Shown here: positions 35,613 through 50,221 of the stretch, one piece after another
How the letters are laid out: every line of letters begins with the position of its first letter
Position numbering within the stretch: position 1 is the first letter of the stretch
Source: Folioceros fuciformis
Lineage: Eukaryota
DNA length: 64,000 bases
Direction of reading: 5' to 3'
NCBI GenBank assembly: GCA_049999805.1
Contig: JBNGIO010006379.1
Span: 997,971-1,061,970, forward strand
Position numbers and translations under genes: made by a program
Notes under the pieces: generated by a model
The model's input: the letters and a program-made list of their open reading frames with translations, nothing else
Told to the model about the DNA's origin: nothing
The model's database searches: none

Positions 35613-36296
35613 TCGAATCCAGAACAGAGCTTTCCACGGCTGACTGCCTCCACGCTGACAAAGGCCAGGGAACCATCCTCGATTCCAGAAAGGGCGAATG
35701 CGTCCTCCCATGCCCCATTCCATCCTCAGACGATGCGGAACATTCACCACGCAGCCATTGGTTAAACCATTAACCACATTACTAGAAGTTATATGACATT
35801 AGCTTAAATATCTAGAAAATCTTATTGCTTAGAAGTCTAAGCGTCCTAAGTATGCAAAGAGGAAAGCTGCATCTCAGAGATAAGAACATAAGAACTTAAA
35901 AATTGGACTAAGGCTGGGTAGCCAGGCACTAACCTCCCAAGACCTACTTTGAAGATACTTTAATATATTTATAAGAATGTTTAGATATTTCATAAAACTT
36001 ATTTATTTTTCATGTATATATATATGTATTTTATATCTAGAAGGTTCTCAATAAAAAGACAAGATGGATTCGAGAGAGATTTTGAATATCCGATCCCATC
36101 CCATCCGAGCATTGGATGCGAGAGGTGGAAATATGTGAACTGAAAATGGGTGGGAAGGGAAGGTGCGGGTCTGGTAAAGAAAAACAAAAATGAAAAGAAA
36201 AAAATCATGCAAGAGAGGGGTATTAAAAGATGAGGGTGATGACAATGGATGCCTGATTTTTGCATAACCCGAGAACGTACAGCAAAGTAGGCTATT

Positions 36297-37133
36297 TGAC
36301 CATGGTCAGGAGAAGTGCTGTTTGCCGCCAAGTCTGTGGAGCCAGGCAGGAGGAGTAGGCGGGAGACGAGCGCGGGCATCATCAGTATCAGAGGTTTTTA
36401 TCATCCGTGTGTTTTTGTCGTGCCGGCGGCGCTGCCTCCCTCCTTCCCTCTTTTGATCGGAGGAGCGCTGGTGCCCCTCTCAGGCAAAGGCGTGGGTGCA
36501 GCAAGAGCGAGGACGCTGGTGGCCGGCCAGGGTTTATGCCCTGATCTTGCCCGCCGTGTGTGCGCATAGGCAGAGGCGGAGGCAGAGACAGAGGCAGGGC
36601 CGAGTGGAACCGGGCCCGCCCCACACACAGGTCAGGTCAGGTCAGGTTGGGCCTAGGCCGCTGTCATCTTTGGAGCAGGGCGGTGCGCTGCGTGCGATCG
36701 CCTGCGCCACGGACGGCCCGCTCCCGCTGCGGAGCTAGGTAGTGGAAGAGGTGACGCCTGCGGCTCTGTCTGCTGTCTTGTGTGCGCGCGCCCGCCCGAT
36801 GATCTTGCTGTGCTCTTTTGCCTTGACGGAACAGCGGAACGGATAGCCGGGCCTCAATTCTCCCGCACCCCCCCTGCCCGCCGGCCCAAACCTATCCATG
36901 TCCTGTGCCTGGCGCCGGGGGGAGGGGAGGTTAGGACCATGGTGTTAGGTCATGTGTGTTTGACTGCTGGTTGACTCGTGCGCTGGTGTTGGAGTGATAT
37001 TGTAGACTAGTGTAGTGTAGGGTGCGCTGGAGAAGCTCAATGTGGTACGCGGCTTAACACCTCCGCTGGCGCCGGTTTGTGCTTGTGGCAGGCAGGCAGG
37101 CCTAGTATGGCGGGTCCTGGAAGTGGTGCGGCC
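36297..37133 (+). promoter_or_regulatory. shared 5' module, copy 1 (promoter palindrome, 5'-UTR blocks, minimal uORF, UTR intron, first 9 codons of GIP1-like gene)
   Basis: Blocks TGACCATGGTCA 36297-36308, TCGTGCCGGCGGC 36418-36430, AGGGTTTATGCCCTGATCTTGC 36529-36550, GTCATCTTT 36663-36671, CGATCGCCT 36695-36703, GGAGCTAG 36731-36738 and MAGPGSGAA 37107-37133. All recur collinearly upstream of the G3BP-like gene. Confidence 0.85.
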
Positions 37134-40100
37134 GGGGGCGCTCTCCCGGCTGTTGCCAGCGCCAGCGCCTCCAGCTCCGCGGGTATCCCCTCCAATGCTC
37201 GCAAGGTGGTGCAGCAACTGAAGGAGGTGGTGCCAGGGACCGATGATGAGATCTACGCTATGCTCAGGGACTGTAACATGGATCCAGACGAGACGGTGCA
37301 GCGGCTGCTCAACCAGGGTACGCTCGCCTCTGCTGCGGCGTTTGTCGTTGCTACTCGCTCTTTCAGATTGGGACTTTCGTTTGCGTCTTAGGAACGCGTG
37401 GCTCTCGTGCTAGCCACTCCACCCCGAGACGCAGGTCAGGTTGGGTGGGTGCTCTTGGCCCCGCTCCACGGATGTTCTGTACGCCCAACCTACCTTGAGG
37501 GTGGTGAGGCAGCAGGGGGTGGCCTGAGACATGCAGCCCTCGGAACGGGTGGGGTTGCCGTGGTTGACTCGTAGGGTGTGCCTGAGACACGCAGAGGCTG
37601 CCGTGCGCTTGGACATATCTGCATGTCTGGGATGGATGGAAGCATGGATGGATAGATATATAGCCTTGTCCTCGCTTTACCTGAGATGTCTTCAGCCCTT
37701 CCTAGTTTGTGGATCACCCCAGTCGCTTGACCTGACTTAAGCCCTTCCTAGTTTGTTGAGCACCCCAGTCGCTAGTAACGCTGGCTTGTTTGCCTGTTAG
37801 TCGCCGGGTTTTGGAGCTTAAGGTTGTCGGATTCTACGGCCTCCTGATGCATTTTAGTAGGCCGTGTAGCTCGCTGGGATGTGCGGCGTCACAGCGTTTA
37901 TCTTACGTGGTGTCCTGCCCTGTCCGCAGATCCTTTTCATGAAGTGAAACGGCGGCGAGAAAAGAAGAAAGAGGTAGCGAGAGCACCAACCAGGATTGTC
38001 ACTCAGTGTGCAGCATCTGCCATCCTGTCCGTGGCCTTGTTCTCATATCGTTCCTGCCCTTGTCACCAGCTCGGAGGAAATAAGGACGGTAGTGAAAGCA
38101 GGCAAAGGCCAAATGGTCCTTCCTCAAGGGGAGGAAGAAACGGCCCCTCAGAGCGTGGTGCTGGGAGAGGGAGTGGTGCTCCCCGCTACTCCAGCGGTGA
38201 GTAATCTTTTCTTCTTCGTGGGTTTTACACAGGGATAAGCAGGCGGTGGTAGTTGTGATTGATGACTCCCCTGGGTTGTAGATTACAATGGTGGTGGACG
38301 AGGGAAGCAGTTTGTCCCTCGAGAGAATGGTATTCACTCCAACAACCGTGGTTCCAGTGGCATGGCGTCGGCTACAGCTTCATCTGGCTCAGGTTTTAGC
38401 CTGTCGAAAGGCTTCCCATCCGGAGCAAGGTGCGATTTTCTCATTTTTTTATGTCACTGTTTTTTATGTGTCTGTAAGTTCCATTATGTCTGTGTGGCGT
38501 TTTCAGACTAATGGTGAATTTGAACTTGGTGCAGCAATCCGGTATCTGCACCTGCTCCCATTCCACCAACTGCTGTTGCTGCAGGACCTGCTTCCATGCC
38601 TTCGCCTGCCGCAGTGCCTGCACCAGCATCTGTTTCAGCCCCCAGTCTATCCAATGGAAGTTCTGTCTATGCTCGCACAGCGCTTGTAGGTCAAAGTTGG
38701 GTGGCCACTTCCGGACATGCAACTATGGCAGACATTGTCAAGTCCAACGGTGCACCCCCACCAACTCCTCCACTTCCTGCTGCCCTCCAACCATCTCTAC
38801 CGTCTGTTGCACCTCAGCAATATGTTACATCTCCTCCTGCTGGATCTGTGTCATCTGGCGTGTACTCCTCTTCCACTGATCCTGTGCTTCATCCATCTCT
38901 GGATCCCCGTGCTGGTACACCTGGTACAATCAAACGTGAGCTTGGGTCAGTTGGGAATCAGCGCCCAATAGGAGATCGGCCGTCTGTTTCGGTGATTGGT
39001 GATGCGACTTCTATCTCTCCCCCCTCTCATCAGTCTCACATGATCTCTTTAACTGCTACCACTTCCGGCAGTGCTCCCCTTGAATCTGAGGTGCAGGTCT
39101 CTGGGCCGAGTAGCCCGGCTGGAACTGCTGATATCTCAGAAAGGGTGGGCAATCAATCAGCCCTGTCAGATGTTGGAAATGGCGGGGTAGTATCACGCCA
39201 GTCGCCAGGAGCAGTTCAGAGCAATGTGTCTGCAACAACTGTGCCCCGAACAGTGTTGGGTGGGGGCCAGTTCAATGGCAGGTCAGGGTATCAAGCCCAA
39301 CAACCCGTCGGAACTGTAAAATGTAAGCCATTGTGCAGGTCGAGGCTACCTTTTTCCTTTGTTCTTTTTCAGTGAGTTTCAACCTGTCATCGATCAAGCT
39401 GATCGCCTGGTGTTATCCTGCAGCCAGCGGATCTGGGTTGGAATGGAAGCCTAAACCATCAATTTCAAGCTCTTTGGGGATAGGCAGTACCATCGGAACC
39501 TCAAGCTCCTCAGTGGCTGCCCCTGAGCCTACAAGAGCTCCACCTGCACCAGCTCCTGCTCAGGATGCCAGTGTAACAGCTTCAGCGACTACTAAGCTCC
39601 AGGGCCTGAGTATCCAGGATGAGCAACAAGTGATTATACCGAATCATCTTCAAGTGCCAGAGGCAGACCAAGTTACAGGTTTGAGCTTTGGGAGTTTTGA
39701 CGCAGGTTATGGAACATCATATTCCTCAAACTTTGTTCCTGAAGAATCGATCAACTCGACCTTGCCTATTTCCGAGGCAGCACCACTCGTTGAGCCTCCT
39801 GTGGAACAGCCTAGCACAAGGTTTGTCAATCTTGTGTTTTGCGTATTTTTGAAAGCCATCCTTCTGAGACTTCTCCGAACTGACCTTTGGTGTTACTTTC
39901 CTTCTGTCGTTATATCAGTGTTTCGAGTCCCTCGCCAGTATCTCTCAGTCAAAGCTTTGTCCATCAGCCAGTGGCGTCCCCACCAGAAAGCTTGGTTGCC
40001 AGTAATGACGTGACTGCAAGCCCTCCTGTTCCAGCTGTGCAGCAACTGGAGTTGTCGAAGCCGGATCCTGTTGTCCAACAGCACTATCCGTACCACGGGT

Positions 40101-41446
40101 TACCACCTGTAGCTAGTTATCATAGTTTTGGGATGCTGCCACAGATACCATCACCACAGTACTCGTATGAACCAGATCCAGCGCCGGATGTCTCTAGGTT
40201 GCCAAATATAATGGTGAGATCTCTGCCGTGTCGTAGCCTTTGTATGTGTGATGTAGACTTGGCTATTGATGAGATCTTATCACCAATGACGTACTTGTCG
40301 TATGTAGCAGGCATATGCAGATCCCACGCCAAACTATTACACACCGGCTTTCAGACCTGGGGCAGATCCGGACCGGTATCCTGCGTTTTTGGCTAGCAAT
40401 GCAACCAGCAAGTTCAATGGCAATATTGGGCTCCAGAGTCCTCAGACATCACAGGAGGTATGTTTCATGCGGTGCTCAGCTTCCATGTTCCTTCTGTGTC
40501 GTTGGGTACATCTCTCACTGTGCCTCCGTGATGTCTAGACTGGAAGTTCTTTGCCATCAACGGGTGCATCGGTGCAGACGTCTCAGACAGGAAATGCACA
40601 ACCGGCCCCATCCATTCCTCAGCAAGGAGTGCCCATGCATGCTTATACAGCTCAGGCAGGAGTACCTGTGGGACACTTCGCAAGCATTTTTGGGTATCAG
40701 CTTGTGCCTTCCAACTACGCCTACATGCCCCATCCTCCATATCAGCATAGTTACACTGGAAATAGTGGATTTCCTCAGCCTCCTGCCGGTACCAGTTACC
40801 CTCAGGCTGCTGGTAGTAGCTACCCACCTGCTGGAGCTGGGGGTGTGAAGTATGGCTTGCCGCAGTACAAACCTGGCAGCAGTTCAGGCAATGTGCCGCA
40901 CTCAGGAGCTGGTTCAACCTACGGTGGGTACACTCCTACTCCTGCTGGCTATACTTCGAATCCGACTGTGACTGCTGGTAGTGCTAGTGGATACGAGGAT
41001 GTCCCTCAACCTTACAAGGATAACATCTACATTCCTCAGCAACCGGTAAGCCCTTTCGTGCATTGTTGTTATAGTTGATCGGCAGCCCCTCAGGCCGTTG
41101 GTAATTTTGTGTCTGGGATGTTCAGGCTGACGGGAGCACTGTATGGATCCAAACGCAACTGTCACGCGACATGGGTGGTGCTGGGTTGCAGACAAGTTCT
41201 TACTACAACATGCCCAATCAAGTTCAACACGCAGGTTACTCCCACACGCAGCAACCTACACATGCGCATGGTCACCCAGGCGCGGGTTATACCAATTTGT
41301 ATCATCCTACACAGTCTGGACCTGCCCCTAGTGGTCACCAGTTACTTCAACAGCCCCAGGCCCTTGGAGCTACAGGTAGTGGTGGCCAGGCGGGCGCCTA
41401 CCAGCAACCACAACGCACTCAACAGACATGGGCCGCTAACTACTGA
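37107..41446 (+). CDS. GIP1: GBF-interacting protein 1 / DUF1296 family (UBAP2/Lingerer-like), multi-exon
   Basis: N-terminal UBA-like IPSNARKVVQQLKEVV..DDEIYAMLRDCNMDPDETVQRLLNQDPFHEVKRRREKKKE, RG-rich segment, TMADIVK, EWKPKP, VIIPNHLQVPE..LSFGSF, and a long P/Q/Y/G-rich prion-like C-terminus ending WAANY*. Confidence 0.9.
37694..37773. repeat. 34-bp direct repeat in the first coding intron of the GIP1-like gene
   Basis: agcccttcctagtttgt(g/t)ga(t/g)caccccagtcgct at 37694-37727 and 37740-37773. Confidence 0.85.
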
Positions 41447-42465
41447 CTTGTTTGCTGGAGGGTTAAGGGATACGTAGTCACTGACTTGACTCTATTGATG
41501 AGCCAGCACTGGGACGTCGGGAGTTCTTGGGATCTTGTCCTTGACAGGCCCAGGAGCCATGAGAGATGGTGCCACCTAGGAGGGCTTGCTTCTTTTATTG
41601 TCTAGGCAGAGGAGTGGGAGAGGTCGTAGCTCAGATTGTAGCAGGGGCCTTCAATAGGTTGTCCTGAGAGTGTACATAACAAGGTTGAAGCCGATGAACA
41701 TCGATAGGCGTACTTCCGATGGAAGACGGTAGAATGTGGCAGACTACCCGATGATTTGTTTTAGTCCCAGGTTTGGTCTTGTTTTGTGTCTCATTCTGAG
41801 ACCTTGCATGACTCCGGCGTATCACAGCCCACTCATCCCATGCTTTGAAGGTGAGCACCGTTTCCTGGTGAAGATGAGGTACCGGATGTTGTACGAAGTG
41901 GTTGAGACATTGTTGCTGAAATCGTTAATGCTCAAGGCGGATATGTGAAATGGGACCTGGTGTCGCCTCTATTACCCTTAACCCGTCCAGGATTCGTGCG
42001 AGGGGCTTTGTCGAGGCGTACAGTCCGTCAACATTTTCAAATAAATCAACTCTTGTGGATCGAGGGTTCGGTTAACCGGTTGTGCAACGTTCGTGCGAAA
42101 CTTTTCATCACGAGTGATATCGATCGTTCCACGGTCAAACATGCCCGTAGGACTGCTCATCTTCCCTTTCCCTATTTCCCTCATGATAGCTCGAGTTTGT
42201 TGGACTTTTGTGTATGCATCATCGAGACACTTCGAGGCTGAAGCAAGCAAAGAGGCAATTTGGCCGAAACTTGGCTGCTTTACTCGCACGTCCCTATGAT
42301 TTGCTGACCGGGCCGCGATTTGACAGTGGCCCACCCAACGTCGTGGTTTGAATTTGAGAATCACATCGTCTCGTCTCCATTCCCGCCAGGAATTCCTTGA
42401 CCTGCAATGCTGGTGGACGATGGCGGCAGGTACGAGCAGGTAGAGTCCCTCCCCGCGACACCCTC

Positions 42466-43854
42466 ATGGGAAGAAGGGAGGGTGAGCTCCAGGTGACGGT
42501 GGTGGATGAATTCGAAGACTGGCTCCACGATGCCTCCTTCTTCGAGCGGCTTCCGCAGGAGGAACCGGCGAGGAAGGCAAGGGGGCTGATCAGGATGGAC
42601 GATCTGCTCAGGGANNNNNNNNNNNNNNNNNNNNNNNNNNNNNNNNNNNNNNNNNNNNNNNNNNNNNNNNNNNNNNNNNNNNNNNNNNNNNNNNNNNNNN
42701 NNNNNNNNNNNNNNTGCGAGAAGAGACTCCTGTGCCAGGAGGCGCCTGCGAAGAAGGCTTCCAAATGGGGAAGGAGACTCTTCGGGCCTTCCGCCCAAGT
42801 GCCCGCGCCACCTGTCGGGAGCGGGGTGCTAGAAATGGCGCTGCAGGTCATGCCGGACAGAGAGCCCTTGGAGCTCCTGTCTTCGGGCGACCTGCTTGTG
42901 GTAGCCCGTCTCAGCGGCACGATTGACCACCTCTTCTTCCAATGGGTGTTCCATCACATGGCCTTCTCATCAGATTCCGCAGCGGAGGAATCGGCCTCCT
43001 CGATGCTATGTCAAATTGCAGACCCGGCTGAACGATTCTCACCGAAGTGGGGCGGGTGGATGCCAGACGGCGGCTTGTTCGTTTCCGCTTTCCGTTGCCT
43101 AGGGTACGAGGAGGATGCGCCGCCTCCAGGACTGGTCGGCTCGGCAGATGTGCAAGGCGGGTGTCCCAGGAACGTGCGCTCTTTACTCCGGGTTCTGGCT
43201 GCGTTTTCCTCGCCTCCAGCTTTTGCTACTTTTTCGGTCACCGACGCGGAGAGGCTGGTGCTGCTTCTTCTTGGCTTTGTCGGGGATCGTGATCTCCAGC
43301 ACTTTCTGCCTCTCGTGTCTGTGTGCCTGGAGCAACTGCTGGACTGGTTTTCAGTGGATGACTGGCCCCATGTTTTGGAACGAATTGCTTCTCGCCTGGC
43401 CGAAGGAGGCGCCAATAATCTCGTGTTTGTGAAGGGCTATCTGACGTTCCATTGCCGCGTGAGGCAAGTCCAGAGCCAGACGGTCCTGTGTCATCTTCAA
43501 ACGTTCACCAAGACAGGACAAATCCGGTCTGCTGCAGATGTGGTGTCGCTTTTCAAGAATGTGAGTTTGCGAAAGGGAACAGCGTTTCTCGAGCTGTACA
43601 ATCAACTCGTGCTGGCTGATTTGTGGTTGTGGCAAAACCTGCCTACGTGCAGTAAGGATGCCACGGCTATGCAGGCATGGATCTCTTTCTTGCGGAGATG
43701 TTCCACCCAGATTTTCTGCGGAGATACCAGGCTTCATGCTACTAAGCTCAGGGATTGGGCTTCGTTTCTGTGCCATAAGTATACTACTCCAGCGGCCCAT
43801 GAGACGGAACCCGAACAAGGTTGTGAGGTACAGGACACAGGCTGGATAATTTAG
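42466..43854 (+). CDS. intronless helical protein, tentatively NSE6/SLF2 (CANIN/FAM178)-like SMC5/6 accessory subunit; interrupted by a 100-N gap (42615-42714)
   Basis: Long open frame with LIRMDDLL, KWGRRLFG, WVFHHMAFSS, WMPD..F..LGY, CPRNVR, DRDL and WISFLRRCSTQI..DTR..ATKLRD.ASFL. E2F-like ATTCCCGC at 42379-42386. Family assignment is from recalled motif pattern only, and the frame across the gap is unverifiable. Confidence 0.55.
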   Translation: MGRREGELQVTVVDEFEDWLHDASFFERLPQEEPARKARGLIRMDDLLRXXXXXXXXXXXXXXXXXXXXXXXXXXXXXXXXXXCEKRLLCQEAPAKKASKWGRRLFGPSAQVPAPPVGSGVLEMALQVMPDREPLELLSSGDLLVVARLSGTIDHLFFQWVFHHMAFSSDSAAEESASSMLCQIADPAERFSPKWGGWMPDGGLFVSAFRCLGYEEDAPPPGLVGSADVQGGCPRNVRSLLRVLAAFSSPPAFATFSVTDAERLVLLLLGFVGDRDLQHFLPLVSVCLEQLLDWFSVDDWPHVLERIASRLAEGGANNLVFVKGYLTFHCRVRQVQSQTVLCHLQTFTKTGQIRSAADVVSLFKNVSLRKGTAFLELYNQLVLADLWLWQNLPTCSKDATAMQAWISFLRRCSTQIFCGDTRLHATKLRDWASFLCHKYTTPAAHETEPEQGCEVQDTGWII

Positions 43855-44374
43855 GAAAACCGTTGGGCAAGGTTCTCAAGAGTCTCAAGCTCAGCGAAGG
43901 TGCTTGTTTCACATTTGCTTGAATGTACCGATGTATTGAGACACTTCACTCCTAGGTGAAGAGTGCATTAGGTTTACCATGGACTCTTTAGGGTGTCTTG
44001 AATGGGGTCGAGGCTGAGGAAATGCTGCTTACTATTACCCAAGAGGTTGTACAAGAAAAATTACATTTGAGGGTGGGAAGAAATAAAGATTCACCTTAAT
44101 CAACATGGCTTCAAGATTATCATGAAATGCAGCTATGTTGAAGAGGTAGAGAACAAATACACAAAGCACACCAAAGATATCTATTGAAACTCTAGATTAC
44201 AAAAGTTATAAGTTTACTCTTTGGATCCAATTCAATTTCCAAAGTGCGTTGGTCTTAGAGCGTTCTCCGCATGATGCGGAGTGCGCCTGAATATAAAGTT
44301 ATTACTAAGAGATGAACCCTACACTACACTATTAGTACATGAATGAAAGAAGGTATGCTGATCTACAGCACACA

Positions 44375-44537
44375 TAGATCCAAACTTCTTCATTTTGACA
44401 CTTTCAAACCACTTTGTTCTCATTGTGCCAGTAAATCCAAACTTCTTCATTTTGACACTTTTAAAACACTTTGTTCTCATTGTGCTGGTAGATCCAAACT
44501 TCTTCATTTAACACTTTCAAAACACTTTGTTCTCATT
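44375..44537. repeat. three tandem copies of a 57-bp unit
   Basis: tagatccaaacttcttcattttgacactttcaaa.cactttgttctcattgtg units start at 44375, 44432 and 44489. Confidence 0.9.
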
Positions 44538-44999
44538 TGTTGCACGAGGTGATATGCTTTTTTGGCTTCTACATGGACAAGGTCTTTTTTACACAGGTAT
44601 GTCTTCTTGTGTTTGAAATCTCATGATAAAATGTCGAAAATTAGCTAGGATTATGATTCCTTGAAAAGTGGAAAACAGACTTCATGCATTCCTTGAAAAA
44701 TGAGAAATTACTTTATGGAATTCAAACGTTTGGTCCTAAACCCTAAGAAATTTAAAAGAAAATTTTAAATTTTAAATAGAATGATAGATGAAAGAATACT
44801 TATCATGTGTAAGGTTTTCTACACGATCTACTTAAGTACGGTGTATTAACTCAAACAAATCACATTGTTGGTAAGGTTTTGAATGCATGTAGCTATCACA
44901 ACATAACGTGTATGGAGCTTGGGATTAATAAGCTCTTATTCAACATGGGTCTTTGTTTTCCATCCATCGTCCTTATCGTCGTTCCTTGCATGTTTCTTC

Positions 45000-45305
45000 T
45001 CTTATTCTCTTATGTTTGCTTCAGGGCCATTGAAACATTTCTTCCCTTGTCCTCTTATGTTTCCTTAGGGCCATTAAAACTTGTCCTCTTATGTTTGCCG
45101 TTTCTTCCTTTGTCCTCTTATGTTTGCCGTTTCTTCCTTTGTCCTCTTATGTTTCCTTAGAGCGATTAAAACTTGTCCTCTTATGTTGCCTTGGGGCGAT
45201 TAAAACTTGTCCTCTTATGTTTGCTTAGGGCCTCCAAAATGATTATTCTCTTGTCTCTTATGTTTGCTTCTCTTATCCTCTTCTTTTTGCTTCTCTTGTC
45301 CTCTT
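45000..45305. repeat. degenerate minisatellite with tgtcctcttatgttt core (about 29-35 bp units)
   Basis: Core recurs about 8 times, alternating with ccgtttcttcctt and ccttagggccattaaaact spacers. Confidence 0.8.
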
Positions 45306-45780
45306 CTAAACAAGTTGGCTTCGGGGTCATCGAACATTTCTTCTCTTGCTGTGATATGTTTCCTTGAGCGCCATCGAAATGGAAGTGGTTCAATTTCCAT
45401 CCTCCTTGTCCTACTCCATTGCTATTGGAGTTCTTGGAAGAGAAGTGAAAGTTCTTTCCCTTCCTATGAAGGTTCTCCTCGAAAGGGGAGTGGAAGCCGT
45501 CTCCTCCAAAGGGAAGTGGAAGTCCTTTTCCTGTTGTAGCCCTCTAGTCACATTGGAGGCCATAGACGGAGAGTTGGGCCCTCGGTGTCCTCCACCTACA
45601 CCAACACGAGCAACAATAAATAACTAAGAGAAAAAAGAAATGAAAATAGTATTTTTCCCTCCCATACACAGAGCGCTAGACAAAAGTTACCCTAGGTTTC
45701 AGGAAGCCAATTCCAGAGAACCTCTCGCCTTAAGCCAAACCGTCCGAGTGCTCGGCGGTACGGCTAATTGGTTCAACGGA

Positions 45781-46110
45781 TTCACCAGGGCTCGCCCTTC
45801 CAGCTTTTCATGGTAAGCGAGTAATGCTTTCACCAGGACTCGCTCTTCCACCTCTACACTGTAAGTGACTAACGATTTCGCCAGCCAGGTCCAGCTGGCC
45901 CTTCCAGCTGCACGCGGTAAGTGAAGAACGCTTTCACCAGGGCCTAACCCTCAAGGTCTTCACAGTTAGCGAGTAACTCTCTGGCCAGAGCTGACCCGTC
46001 CCTCTCTTCACGGTAGGTGAGTACCTACCTTCCACCAGAACCGGTCCTTTCAACTCTTCACGATAGATATGTATCTTTCACCAGGGCTAGGCCCTTCTGG
46101 ATCTTCACGG
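45781..46110. repeat. seven degenerate ~48-bp tandem units downstream of the G3BP-like gene
   Basis: TTCACCAG-like anchors at 45781, 45829, 45877, 45933, 45981, 46031 and 46077. Confidence 0.85.
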
Positions 46111-46527
46111 GAAGGAATTAAAAAAAATGTGCTTCAGAGAGTTTGCACCCTCCACCAAAGGGCCACCACAATAAACAGTCCAGGGACTGGGCTAATCCTT
46201 CCATGGATTACATAATTTCGAAAATCCTACACTCTGCAGACAAACAAAAATGCAATGGAGAACAGAGACCCCATGTAATCCCTCTTCCAACAATAACCTA
46301 AGCGCCTCAACACAGTTACCAGTCGTTACTTTATCTAACGGCCCCCACCCGAAGGAGCAGTTCCTAGCTTGAAGAAGCAAATGGGCACAGGGGAAAAACC
46401 ATGATGACTTGCATGACGACCAGAATGCATACGCTATGCCAGCACATGAGCGGTACATACTTACGAACTCTCGTGTGTGGTAAGCACAGCGATCAGCACT
46501 CCAGAAGGCAACACTAAAAAAGACAAG

Positions 46528-48871
46528 TCAGGCGATGGGAACTGGAGGTGGCGCATCATGCGCGAGGGGCAGATTATTACGGGACATCTGATTGCTTGGT
46601 CCTCTTCGCACTGGCTTCGGTCCCATGTTCCCTGCTTGGCCCTCGCTCTTGCGGTAGTTATCGCCTGTAGCATTTGCACCGAAGTTGTTGCCGAGGTTGG
46701 GGCCCGACCCTCCACTATAACCGCCACGCCCCTGACCACCGCGGCCTCGATAATAAGTCTCACCGCGATCCTGCTGGCCACCACGTCCTCCTCCCATACC
46801 TCGACCACCACCAACTCCCAGACCGCGACCACGCATGCTGTTCTCAGGGCGGTATGGCCGATCTCCCCTTCCAGCTGGCGGACGACCCCTACCGGCACTA
46901 CCACCTGCAACAACAAAACTGAAGTCAAGATGTATTCTTCAATCAAATCTTAAGTCAGCACAGCACATGATCGTCATCGAACACTACCTCGCAGCATGAG
47001 AGGCCTTTTCTCCTCGATGTACACGTGACGGCCGCCCAGAGACGTGGATCCAGCCTGCATTCACGGGATAAGATACAAATGAGATGCAACAGGAGAAGAG
47101 GCAATACGATAAAGGAAGTGAAGATGGCCACCCAGCAAGTACCTCTATTGCACGATGTGCAGCCGACGCATCGTCAAACTCTATGAACGCGTAACACACA
47201 CCCTGTTGCTGTTGAGAGAAACGGAGGAAAGCATCAAGGTGAGACTCAAAACTCGTTAAGACCAATTAGTTACGCAACCTGTAACTAGACAGCAGATCTT
47301 AAACCTTTTGGCTCTTCACATTCACACCACCAGGTTTTACTGGTCCAAATCTGGAGAACTCCTCCTCTAGCTGTTGCGCTGTCACATGCAAAGGCAAATT
47401 CTTGACATAAACTGATCTTCCGTCAGCTGCAAGAAAAGTAAAGCAATGAGTCCACAGCATTTTCAAAACCGGATGGGAACTAAATTAACCAGAGCATTGA
47501 AGAACCGTACCCTCATTTTCAACAATGATAGTCTCTTCCGATGCATCCTGCGACTGTGCAGGAGGAGAACGTGGAGCAGCAACTGGCTGCACATTTACAG
47601 CAGCAGGTCGATCAGGTGCAGGTGAGACCTTGGGAGCTGGATTATAGTGTGGAGCTGGCAACTGCGCTCCTCCGCCCTCTTTCATCAACCGAAGCTACCA
47701 TACGACAAGCAAGACAGCATGAGAAATGCGGATCATGAACCAAAAAGAGTCCTACCTTCATGTCACTCTAGAAGATGTGTTGTACCATGGATACTTACAA
47801 TAGATGCATAAGACTTCTTCGGAATTTCTCCGGGAGTAGATTCCTCGGTAGATGGCTGTACAGAGGGAGGCTCAATGATGGGCGATATTGCCTCGTCCAT
47901 CACAGGTACTGTAGCTTCACCGCGAACAAGGACTGCGTCTTCAGAAATTCCGTCATCTTCGGGTTCAGATAACTCAACACGGTCAGGAAGCTCGTATCCT
48001 TCCTCCACCACAGCTTCATCATCCGAGGCACGTGGAGACGATAACTCCCTCACTTCATGCTCAGCAGGCAGTGCAGGTTCCAGAACTGAAGAACAACAAC
48101 CAACACAAAGCGTCACAACAGGATAACGTGAAGGAACAAAGGAAACTTTTCTCTGTAAAACCCTAACTCCTGCTCGAGAGGAAGTACTCATTCTTACCCG
48201 CCTCTTGCGGAGTAAGCACTTGGGGGGGCTCTGGGATGCCATTTGATAATGGAGCAGCAGGTGGTCCCTGCTGGGGAGCTTCATCCAGATACCGAAACAT
48301 ATCATTCAGTACAAAGTAGCCCTTCTCTTGTGGAGCCAAGAAGAAGGTCTGGACAAAATTCCGCTTCCCAGAGGTCTTGCTAGACAGAGATCCCGTCACC
48401 ATAACAATAACTCCACCTTGATGGGAGTCCTGGGAGTCCACAGTCTTAATCTCTGCTTTAGATTCCGTGTAGTCAAGCAGCATAACTTTATTGTGAATCT
48501 CCTGCGAAAACATGTCCACGACTAAGACACAACCGACTCAAACACGAAAAGACCTTCACAGCACACCGCGCAAAGACGGCAGCTTACCGGCTGGCTCTCC
48601 ACCGTGTCAACGGCTCCACCGGCCCCAGCTTCAGCACGCGTTAGCTTACTGGCATTGGTGTAGAAACGATGCACAACTTGGGGGGACTGATGCAGCACAT
48701 GATAATACTGATTGACGAATGCATTCCCCACCTACAATCGGCATATTGCACTCACATTAGTACTGGTCCAGCTGCCCAATCACATCGAAGGACGAGCCGA
48801 GGGGGGAAGAAAAAAAATACCACGCTTGCAGAAGCCGTGATAGAAGCCGCTCCGCTTCCAGGCCCCGCCAT
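46528..48871 (-). CDS. G3BP: G3BP-like protein (NTF2 domain, acidic region, RRM, RGG tail), multi-exon
   Basis: MAGPGSGAASITASASV|VGNAFVNQYYHVLHQSP..HRFY, VDSQDSHQGGVIVMVTG..FVQTFFLAPQEKGYFVLNDMFRY, PKKSYASI, RRM (SVYVKNLP..EEFSRFGPVKPGGV..CYAFIEF) and RGG-rich C-terminus. Stop at 46528-46530. Confidence 0.95.
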
Positions 48872-49589
48872 GGACCTGTCAAACAACCAAACAGCGTTAC
48901 GACCAGAGGAAGGAAAAAAAAAAAATCCCTCACGCACACCTATATCTCCAGAAGTACTAATTAACGGCCGCTACAGCAGCCACGCCGCAAGAAGCAGCGG
49001 GCCAAAACCTAACAAGAGTATCCCCGCAGCAAGACGATGAGCCTGGAATCAGAAGCCAAGGAGACATGCCAACCGCTCCCTCGCATAACCCGCATCCCAT
49101 GGACCAGCACCAGGCGTGCATCCACCCCCGGCAAGCTCAGGAGGAGTAGGAAAAGCAGTAAGGGCTGAAGCGCCGGCACCGCACCTCTAGCTCCACCGGG
49201 GAGCCTGGCTTCCCTACGCCTCGACCCCCGGCCCGGCAGAAGGCGATCGGACAGCGCCTGCCCGAAAGATGACCGCACCCTAGCGGGCTACCGCAATCGG
49301 AGCCAATCTGGCTACCGCAAGGGGCGCAAGATCAGGGCATAAACCCTTGCTCCGCTCCTCTGTTCCCCAGCCAGGACCTGCAGTGCCGGCGCGATCGGCA
49401 CGGGGCAACGAGGCGCAAGGGCGAGGGCAATGGCGGTGAAGGGAGGGTGCCGCCGGCACGAAGAAGTGAAGGACGAAATACCTCCGGCTAACACTGCTCG
49501 CGCACACCTACGCGCTCGGCTTGTCCTCCTCGTACCACGACTAGCTGCCGGAGAGCAAGGGCAAACTCACCCACTTCTGACCAGGGTCA
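48845..49589 (-). promoter_or_regulatory. shared 5' module, copy 2 (upstream of and including the first 9 codons of the G3BP-like gene)
   Basis: Minus strand: TGACCCTGGTCA 49589-49578, TCGTGCCGGCGGC 49461-49449, AGGGTTTATGCCCTGATCTTGC 49347-49326, GTCATCTTT 49273-49265, CGATCGCCT 49249-49241, GGAGCTAG 49194-49187 and MAGPGSGAA 48871-48845. Confidence 0.85.
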
Positions 49590-50221
49590 TGTGCCGCACT
49601 TCGAGCCCAAGTACCTCTCGCCCTTTTTCCAAATGCTAGCTCCGAAGAGAGAGAGATTTTTTTCGCATCGAAACACCCTGTTGCAAATATTTTCCAGGCA
49701 CGGCGGGCCCTGCGTATGTAGGCTGTCCAAGCATGGTTGCTTGTTTGCGACAACTTGTAGAGAAATATCAAAATTTTTATTTGGGTGGGTTTATCCTCCA
49801 AGTAATGTTATTTATTTATTTATTTAGAACATAAGATAGAACATATTATTTAATTATTTAAACATAAGATAGAAAATTAATTTATCTCTATATAAAAAAG
49901 ATGAATATTTTTAAAATATAAGATAGGAAATTCATGTATCCCCACATAAAAGGTAAATCATGATTGGGACCTTAGTTAGGGCTAATCCTTGAAGCCTAAT
50001 GTCTACCAATAGCACCTAAAATATAATATAACGATATAAAGGAAGAAAAGGTCTACCTATGGTTGGGATGGAAGATTAGACATGCAAGTGCTCAGAATCA
50101 GGAAGTGCTCAGAATCAAGAAATGCTAAACCCTAAACCTTATATGGGAACTCATGTTTCTTATATAAATAAATAGAATATATGTATATTTCCTCACTTAT
50201 CTTAACAACTTAATCATGACT

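Follow-up and report, generated by a model that had tools for sequence, protein, structure and literature searches.

Upstream open reading frames (uORFs) of only a few codons form a described class in plants, which the available text of one survey reports to be translated and repressive as a class (PMC10896292). The same text gives 388 two-residue uORFs and 2,921 tiny uORFs (2-10 amino acids) as translated in Arabidopsis; mutating the tiny uORFs that were tested raised reporter output (PMC10896292). The tiny or minimum uORFs such as the AUGUAA of NIP5;1 and the Arabidopsis CiPS set, as far as the available parts of two papers describe them (PMC10896292, PMC11915504), combine an extremely short reading frame with a long leader and conserved flanks. 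We analyzed an element that resembles them in these respects. It is a 22-nt sequence, AGGGTTTATGCCCTGATCTTGC, which occurs in the leaders of two genes within a stretch of 64,000 nt of DNA from Folioceros fuciformis (NCBI GenBank assembly GCA_049999805.1, contig JBNGIO010006379.1, positions 997,971 to 1,061,970 of the forward strand; this whole stretch is called the window in the following). The 22-mer is a real, conserved and transcribed cis-element, which is kept in the mature 5' untranslated region (5' UTR) of both genes. Judged from its letters it differs from the NIP5;1 and CiPS uORFs in that its reading frame is AUG-CCC-UGA, in that this frame is embedded in a predicted hairpin and has a weak start context, and in that it is common to two non-homologous genes. 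We tentatively favor the view that the 22-mer is an mRNA-level tuner, a uORF in a hairpin that acts in parallel on both genes; we would not quite give this view an even chance.

Poor-context uORFs of the CHOP/GADD34 type are bypassed under stress, and upstream AUGs of the eIF5/eIF1 type sense the stringency of start codon selection. The present locus is similar to both types in that a single upstream AUG with a weak context stands in a gene tied to translational stress; with a weak-context AUG of this kind, translation could be maintained or increased under limited initiation. The uORFs of these two types are longer, however, and have an effect that depends on the peptide or on length. The locus also resembles the general concept of 5'-end capture or exon shuffling, in which promoter, leader and first exon are duplicated and become joined to a different gene. 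Here the two genes have a leader exon, the placement of the leader intron and the initial 9 codons in common, with copies that are 12.8 kb apart in inverted orientation. Unlike in the usual capture, the copy here is old and just short constrained blocks survive. The comparison of the two paralogous sequences is therefore a footprint of regulatory elements.

The two genes are convergent and unrelated, and their 5' ends are 12.8 kb apart. Gene 1 (forward strand, ATG at 37107) encodes an N-terminal GIP1_N domain (PF06972, formerly DUF1296; E = 1.6e-19, 70.3 bits versus a cut-off of 26.4). Gene 2 (reverse strand, ATG at 48871) has the architecture of a G3BP-like protein, with an N-terminal NTF2 domain (1.6e-24 and 2.7e-07) and RRM_1 (7.5e-06). 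These Pfam matches were obtained on exon translations; they bear out the identities, DUF1296 and G3BP, which the original prediction had assigned to the genes from the sequence. The element occupies the following positions.

36529..36550, forward strand: 22-nt invariant element in the leader of the GIP1_N/DUF1296 gene (gene 1), exact match, in non-coding exon 1.
49326..49347, reverse strand: 22-nt invariant element in the leader of the G3BP-like (NTF2+RRM) gene (gene 2), exact match, in non-coding exon 1.

As had been claimed, the element is 100% identical in the two leaders, with exact matches at 36529-36550 (+) and 49347-49326 (-). These are the only two exact copies in the 64-kb window, which holds no third site with up to 3 mismatches; the number of matches expected by chance is 0.00 (100 shuffles). 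A weaker similarity around the 22-mer extends over 33 nt at 88% (36526-36558 and 49318-49350). Metagenome scans returned 0 loci with the exact 22-mer, and the Rfam 15 covariance models gave no family at E <= 1 for the element. The sole Rfam match was a sub-threshold one to mir-150 in the intron (19.4 bits versus a gathering score of 55). The frame that runs through the 22-mer (ARVYALIL in both genes) was not taken as coding, because no ATG in this frame is found in the stop-to-stop frames listed and because in gene 2 it ends at a stop five codons past the element. As a separate observation, the final 9 nt of the 22-mer (TGATCTTGC) recur at 36800-36808 (+) in the leader intron of gene 1, and the intron of gene 2 holds a similar CATCGTCTTGCTG.

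The 22-mer is the longest block of a larger 5' module, which is common to the two otherwise unrelated genes. As read from the alignments, the module consists of leader blocks with the same order and similar spacing, a leader intron at an equivalent place, the start codon and nine codons. Its parts, in addition to the 22-mer, are as follows.

36297..36309 (+) in gene 1 and 49589-49577 (-) in gene 2: palindromic block, TGACCATGGTCAG in gene 1 and TGACCCTGGTCAG in gene 2, followed by GTTTGCC.
36418..36430 (+), identical to 49461-49449 (-): block B, TCGTGCCGGCGGC, 13 nt; the 22-mer follows 111 nt downstream in gene 1 and 114 nt downstream in gene 2.
36653..36703 (+) and 49283-49241 (-): patchy block of about 50 nt downstream of the 22-mer, CTAGG..GTCATCTTT..GCAG..GCGCT..CGATCGCCT, from local alignment.
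37107..37133 (+): beginning of the main reading frame of gene 1, with the start codon and 9 codons (MAGPGSGAA) that gene 2 also has.
48845..48871 (-): corresponding beginning of the main reading frame of gene 2 (MAGPGSGAA).

The 5' regions of the two genes share 13 exact words of at least 9 nt, compared with 5.5 +/- 2.4 in resampled controls, and the longest of these words has 22 nt versus at most 14 nt in the controls. The colinear words are GAAAAAAATC, TCGTGCCGGCGGC (at 36418 and 49461), the 22-mer, GTCATCTTT and CGATCGCCT; GGAGCTAG is found just before the donor of the leader intron in both exon 1 sequences. Within the 64 kb the shared blocks are confined to the two leaders. Block B, for instance, occurs only there at up to 1 mismatch, and one other site in the window has 2 mismatches.

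Local alignments were then made segment by segment and scored against 200 shuffles. The segment from the 22-mer to the donor, which holds the patchy block, scored 34 versus a null of 18.4 +/- 2.6, and the start of exon 2 (ATGGCGGGnCCTGGAAGnGGnGCGGC) scored 37 versus 14.4 +/- 2.5; none of the 200 shuffles was as good in either case. The shared upstream region (the palindrome TGACC[A/C]TGGTCAG plus GTTTGCC) reached 23 versus a null of 19.4 and is not significant alone, with 20/200 shuffles as good. The near-palindromic region spans 36297-36358 (+) and 49590-49567 (-), where it carries or adjoins an upstream ATG. The spacer between the 13-mer and the 22-mer scored 16 versus a null of 15.7 (101/200 shuffles as good), and the leader intron 19 versus 20.5 (162/200). 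Spacer and intron can thus no longer be aligned, and the identical blocks therefore reflect constraint and not recent copying.

The same data bear on the simplest alternative, namely that the 22-mer has no function of its own and is a duplication relic or a short undiverged tract of gene conversion. In line with this explanation there are just two copies in the window, and at about 5% divergence the conservation in close relatives (see below) carries little weight. But flanks, spacer and intron are now too diverged to be aligned, and a neutral island of 22 nt with 100% identity is therefore very unlikely. Furthermore, the longest exact match in shuffles was 14 nt or less, and three other species already have the 22-mer in their gene 1 leader, while their gene 2 contigs align across it. 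A conversion tract so short and without flanking homology would also be unusual. We consider it highly improbable that the element is without function.

The module as a whole is best explained by an old copying of the 5' end of one gene onto the other, after which the unconstrained parts would have decayed. The codons of MAGPGSGAA differ at 4 of the 27 nt, and all differences are third-position and synonymous. This suggests selection on the N-terminal peptide and fits an old copy under selection. None of the five GIP1_N homologues (ferns, lycophyte) starts with MAGPG. Several G3BP homologues from bryophytes and ferns, on the other hand, start with MAGQP(S/G)..., which is followed by an Ala/Thr/Ser-rich tail and then by VGNAFV, as is the case here. 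The coding part of the module therefore looks native to G3BP.

The position of the 22-mer in the mRNA was examined with contigs from four public runs, labelled 'RNA?', which were aligned to positions 36000-50000. One run (X1) is from the same organism, with a match of at least 99% to the window; the other three (X2, X6 and X8) are from three related organisms and mostly 80-95% alike. We take the contigs to be derived from RNA because they are joined across GT..AG introns of both genes and because the intergenic bins of X1 are uncovered. The resulting structures are listed here.

36479..36751 (+): exon 1 of gene 1, non-coding leader, minimum extent, from X1 depth and the X2/X8 joints.
36752..37091 (+): leader intron of gene 1, from the drop in X1 depth and the X2/X8 joints; the acceptor is ambiguous by 4-8 nt (CAGG repeat).
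49185..49531 (-): exon 1 of gene 2, non-coding leader, upstream limit approximate, from bin depths and the X2/X8 joints.
48878..49184 (-): leader intron of gene 2, acceptor ttgacag/GTCCATGG, from the relatives X2 and X8.

The leader donor of gene 1 is GAAGAG/GTGACG at 36751/36752, with GGAGCTAG at 36731-36738. X1 has a depth of 0 at 36478; a contig with a depth of 285.1 covers 36496-36671 and appears again from 37152, while in the leader intron the depth is 3.1 at 36879 and 0 at 36886-36938. The splice of gene 1 in X1 was deduced from the equal depth on either side and from contig-size arithmetic. X2 and X8 join 36751 to 37106, and the 14 letters in between represent the CAGG repeat that precedes the ATG. 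In X2 the contig reaches up to the equivalent of 36279, with 22 loose letters that match 36279-36300 with 2 mismatches. In gene 2 the leader donor is CTAGAG/GTGCGG, with GGAGCTAG at 49194-49187. X1 has a depth of 89.7 at 49234-49295; its cover of the bin 49076-49542 is nearly complete, and there is none in the bin that follows. The X2 and X8 contigs pass from 49187 to 48877, with 10 letters in between.

Together these contigs show that in both mRNAs the 22-mer belongs to the non-coding exon 1, ahead of the leader intron. The sequence transcribed upstream of it amounts to at least 33-50 nt in gene 1 of this organism, about 250 nt in gene 1 of X2 and about 185 nt in gene 2. Contigs cannot show a transcription start site (TSS); uncovered parts (for example upstream of 36479 in X1 or beyond 49543) were not counted as evidence for one. 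The original prediction had named a TSS downstream of the element, or its removal by splicing, as findings that would speak against it. The spliced contigs keep the 22-mer in exon 1, and the prediction therefore withstands this test.

Two further features of the leaders were seen in these data. The X1 contig with a depth of 89.7 seems to continue from exon 1 into the leader intron of gene 2 (49076-49184, -), where the relatives are spliced. This read-through could be intron retention or an alternative donor, and the retained part of the intron would add several ATGs. In gene 1 a (GGCAGA)n-like run of the leader (36564-36600, +) is also present in other transcripts, from the same organism and from a relative, which then diverge; the run is a repeated simple motif outside the 22-mer.

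The position inside the transcript also matters for the question whether the 22-mer could act on DNA, as a transcription factor site downstream of the TSS, telo-box-like or other, which together with the other blocks co-regulates transcription. The opposite strand of the 22-mer contains AAACCCT, and the available text of one study places telo boxes mainly in 5' UTRs; where the genes are related to translation, most of the boxes fall in the interval from -50 to +50 around the TSS (PMC3022908). The likeness to a telo box lies in this 7-nt telomere-repeat core in a 5' UTR and in a TGGGCC nearby in gene 1 (36648-36653). In addition, the palindrome and the 13-mer look promoter-like, and the arms AGGG..CCCT form a palindrome in the DNA. 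The original prediction had referred to a reverse telo-box core; the 7-mer AAACCCT is indeed present, whereas the 8-mer that defines the telo box, AAACCCTA in the available text of PMC3022908, is absent from both copies, the next base being G in gene 1 and T in gene 2. The window has four sites of AAACCCTA, all of them elsewhere than in the 22-mers. The shorter AAACCCT occurs 13 times in the window and covers just 7/22 invariant bases, so that the core would explain a third of them. Transcribed sequence, moreover, extends upstream beyond the 22-mer by at least 33-50 nt in gene 1 and by about 185 nt in gene 2. It has the same orientation relative to transcription in both genes, although common descent would also explain this. 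An action on DNA is unlikely in our view.

Within the 22-mer, both leaders contain the same short reading frame.

36536..36544 (+): ATG-CCC-TGA mini-uORF (Met-Pro-stop) of gene 1, in the context gggtttATGc.
49332..49340 (-): ATG-CCC-TGA mini-uORF (Met-Pro-stop) of gene 2, in the same context as in gene 1.

The frame lies where the original prediction had put it, and its ATG is the only one from block B to the main ATG in both spliced leaders, in which the main AUG follows 231 nt (gene 1) or 162 nt (gene 2) downstream. The main ATGs have G at +4 in both genes and A at -3 in gene 1. The frame is a tiny uORF, since its AUG and in-frame stop both precede the main AUG within the mature 5' UTR. It is not a minimum uORF (AUG-stop, NIP5;1 type), as one sense codon stands in between, and it is not a conserved peptide uORF (CPuORF), as the peptide is only Met-Pro and it is the nucleotide sequence, over 22 nt, that is conserved. 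Each gene has a further upstream ATG: in gene 1 at 36302, with the strong context ttgaccATGg and a uORF of 18 codons, and in gene 2 at 49590, with a uORF of 7 codons. Both are at the shared palindromic block, and long isoforms would carry two uORFs at equivalent positions in both genes.

36528..36543 (+), 6 bp, in gene 1 and 49347-49334 (-), 5 bp, in gene 2: predicted hairpin C-AGGGU/UUAU/GCCCU-G, from fold prediction.

The 22-mer alone folds as AGGGU-UUAU-GCCCU with -6.7 kcal/mol (z = -1.95, 10/200 shuffles as good). This small hairpin, with an AUG that straddles the loop as had been proposed, is also present in the minimum free energy structure of both long leaders. In the predicted structure the loop holds the AU of the start codon, and the 3' arm holds its G together with the CCC codon. 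A second pairing, between the terminal CUUGC of the element and an upstream GCAAG, had also been suggested. GCAAG is present in both genes, at 36501-36505 in gene 1 and at 49350-49346 in gene 2. In gene 2, however, it overlaps the first two bases of the 22-mer instead of adjoining it, and the outer pairing and the full hairpin are therefore mutually exclusive there. The extended GCAAG/CUUGC stem, with flanks, was rejected as a candidate: its prediction is inconsistent, its z-scores are not significant and it clashes with the hairpin in gene 2. A36504G, a difference found in all three relatives, would retain a G-U pair and is weak support at best for an outer stem.

The relatives provide a limited test of conservation. 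The gene 1 leader of X2 has 24 substitutions in the 452 nt of 36300-36751 (5.3%) and 26 gap positions, compared with 197/2216 (8.9%) in the listed coding pieces and 166/1180 (14%) in the neighboring gene at 42715-43894. Of the 24 substitutions 21 are listed; none of these is within 36510-36577, and five are at 36496-36509. No difference in the gene 1 22-mer is among those listed for X2, X6 and X8. For the gene 2 copy, contigs of the three relatives align through the 22-mer to 49358, where loose ends begin; X6 has 18 substitutions and 9 gaps in 49187-49358. The smaller divergence of the gene 1 leader fits constraint and is weak evidence for the 22-mer itself. The 9-mer GTCATCTTT differs in relatives at two positions (36664 and 36671), and thus not every shared word is constrained.

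In the reading that we tentatively favor, the hairpin of 5-6 bp would present the weak-context AUG-CCC-UGA mini-uORF to the scanning ribosome. A fraction of the scanning 40S subunits would initiate there and terminate after Met-Pro, possibly with stalling at the Pro-stop; after termination the ribosomes would either re-initiate or be lost. In this way one element could set or tune the translational yield of both proteins in parallel, which would amount to a co-regulation of the two genes. We count in favor of a uORF that the mini-uORF lies in the most conserved block of the module, that its ATG is the sole one from block B to the main ATG in both leaders, that the small hairpin around it recurs in the structures of both long leaders, and that tiny uORFs form a translated and repressive class in Arabidopsis (PMC10896292).

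Several observations weigh against a uORF in a hairpin. The start context of the mini-uORF is weak, with U at -3 and C at +4, and most ribosomes should therefore scan past it. The solitary ATG is not statistically striking, as 1 is observed versus about 2.5 expected (P of about 0.2 per leader). At a divergence of about 5% the 22-mer would be unchanged by chance about 30% of the time, and 36300-36393 and 36672-36751 are likewise without listed substitutions. As to structure, the folds of longer contexts do not surpass those of shuffled sequences (z from -1.09 to +0.30), and the region with the partner of the outer stem in gene 1 is the one where the relatives differ most. The X2 transcript reaches the equivalent of 36279 and thus includes the ATG at 36302; the uORF that starts there would dominate any uORF control if it is also present in the transcript of this organism. 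Finally, Met-Pro-stop needs 9 nt, yet all 22 nt are invariant between the two copies, and the uORF alone does not account for the constraint.

This last point leads to the alternative that the 22-mer is a binding site in the mRNA for a trans-factor, either an RNA-binding protein or a small RNA of 21-22 nt, and that the AUG-CCC-UGA is incidental. Among proteins, the G3BP-like or GIP1-like product itself is possibly the factor, which would give feedback. The identity of 22/22 positions next to spacers and an intron that cannot be aligned is more than a uORF of two codons or a typical transcription factor site needs, and the 22-mer is in the mature 5' UTR of both genes in sense orientation. Small-RNA target sites in plants are 21-22 nt long, which we count in favor of this alternative, and they do occur in 5' UTRs, as in the case of the miR399 sites in the PHO2 leader. 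The likeness to these sites is that of a perfectly conserved island of 21-22 nt in a diverged leader and in different transcripts. On the other side, the window contains no third and no complementary copy apart from the two leaders, and there is no Rfam family. In its favor both products are associated with RNA, one through its RRM and the other as a DUF1296/GIP1 protein; proteins of the latter type are reported in the RNA-bound proteome of Arabidopsis leaves (PMC7226388, available text). We rate a trans-factor site as plausible and, on balance, doubtful.

The original prediction had called both products granule scaffolds. Half of this is documented, in that the available text of PMC7226388 reports DUF1296/GIP1 as RNA-bound and not as granule scaffolds. 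Searches with the proteins give the following picture. The GIP1_N protein has 5 homologues, all with PF06972, from ferns and one lycophyte. For NTF2 there are 482 homologues at E <= 1e-10, many of which are named G3BP-like; the top ones, from mosses and liverworts, have an identity of about 70% (best 120 of 482). The homologues are thus from land plants and of moderate identity only, which marks the source as a land plant that has no close relative in the protein collection searched. With the GIP1_N exon protein, 602 pattern-matching stretches were found in metagenomes, of which tblastn confirmed 0. A search of the GIP1_N exon against PDB sequences gave nothing below E = 0.27, and we make no claim of a relationship to UBA or UBAP2L. 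Among the titles and abstracts listed for plant G3BP uORFs and for DUF1296, none concerned a shared leader or a uORF of these genes.

A more far-reaching scenario combines these elements. In it the 22-mer would be the site of a dedicated trans-factor, either a small RNA or a G3BP-like or GIP1-like protein. The GIP1-like gene would have received a copy of the whole module from the G3BP gene, so that two proteins of messenger ribonucleoproteins are made at a fixed ratio in one post-transcriptional feedback loop, with the Met-Pro-stop uORF in its hairpin as the translational read-out. We regard such a eukaryotic leader regulon, which 5'-end capture would have created, as quite unlikely.

Two other observations concern the surroundings. 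In the G3BP-like gene 144 and 251 nt (46329-46474 and 46890-47142, -) are skipped by contigs from two relatives, with ends that are not intron-like. The Gly/Arg-rich C-terminal region probably differs in length there, or an intron is placed differently. Between the genes an open frame of 498 amino acids from stop to stop (42358-43854, +) is interrupted by a run of N at 42615-42714; it has no Pfam match, its transcription is of low depth, and relatives differ from it by about 14%.

As to known classes, the 22-mer is a tiny uORF or a conserved 5' UTR element; what is unusual is that one 5' module has been captured by two unrelated genes. The comparison of two old paralogous leaders is a natural footprinting experiment, and the footprint marks at least four short blocks, namely the 13-mer, the 22-mer, the downstream block and the first nine codons. 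The case shows a sharing of regulatory 5' ends between unrelated eukaryotic genes, which an annotation by protein homology would never reveal. In animals the dosage of G3BP-type proteins decides on the formation of granules. If the 22-mer is functional, it would be a compact handle on the joint dosage, in a plant, of two RNA-associated proteins, one of them a condensate protein of the G3BP type.

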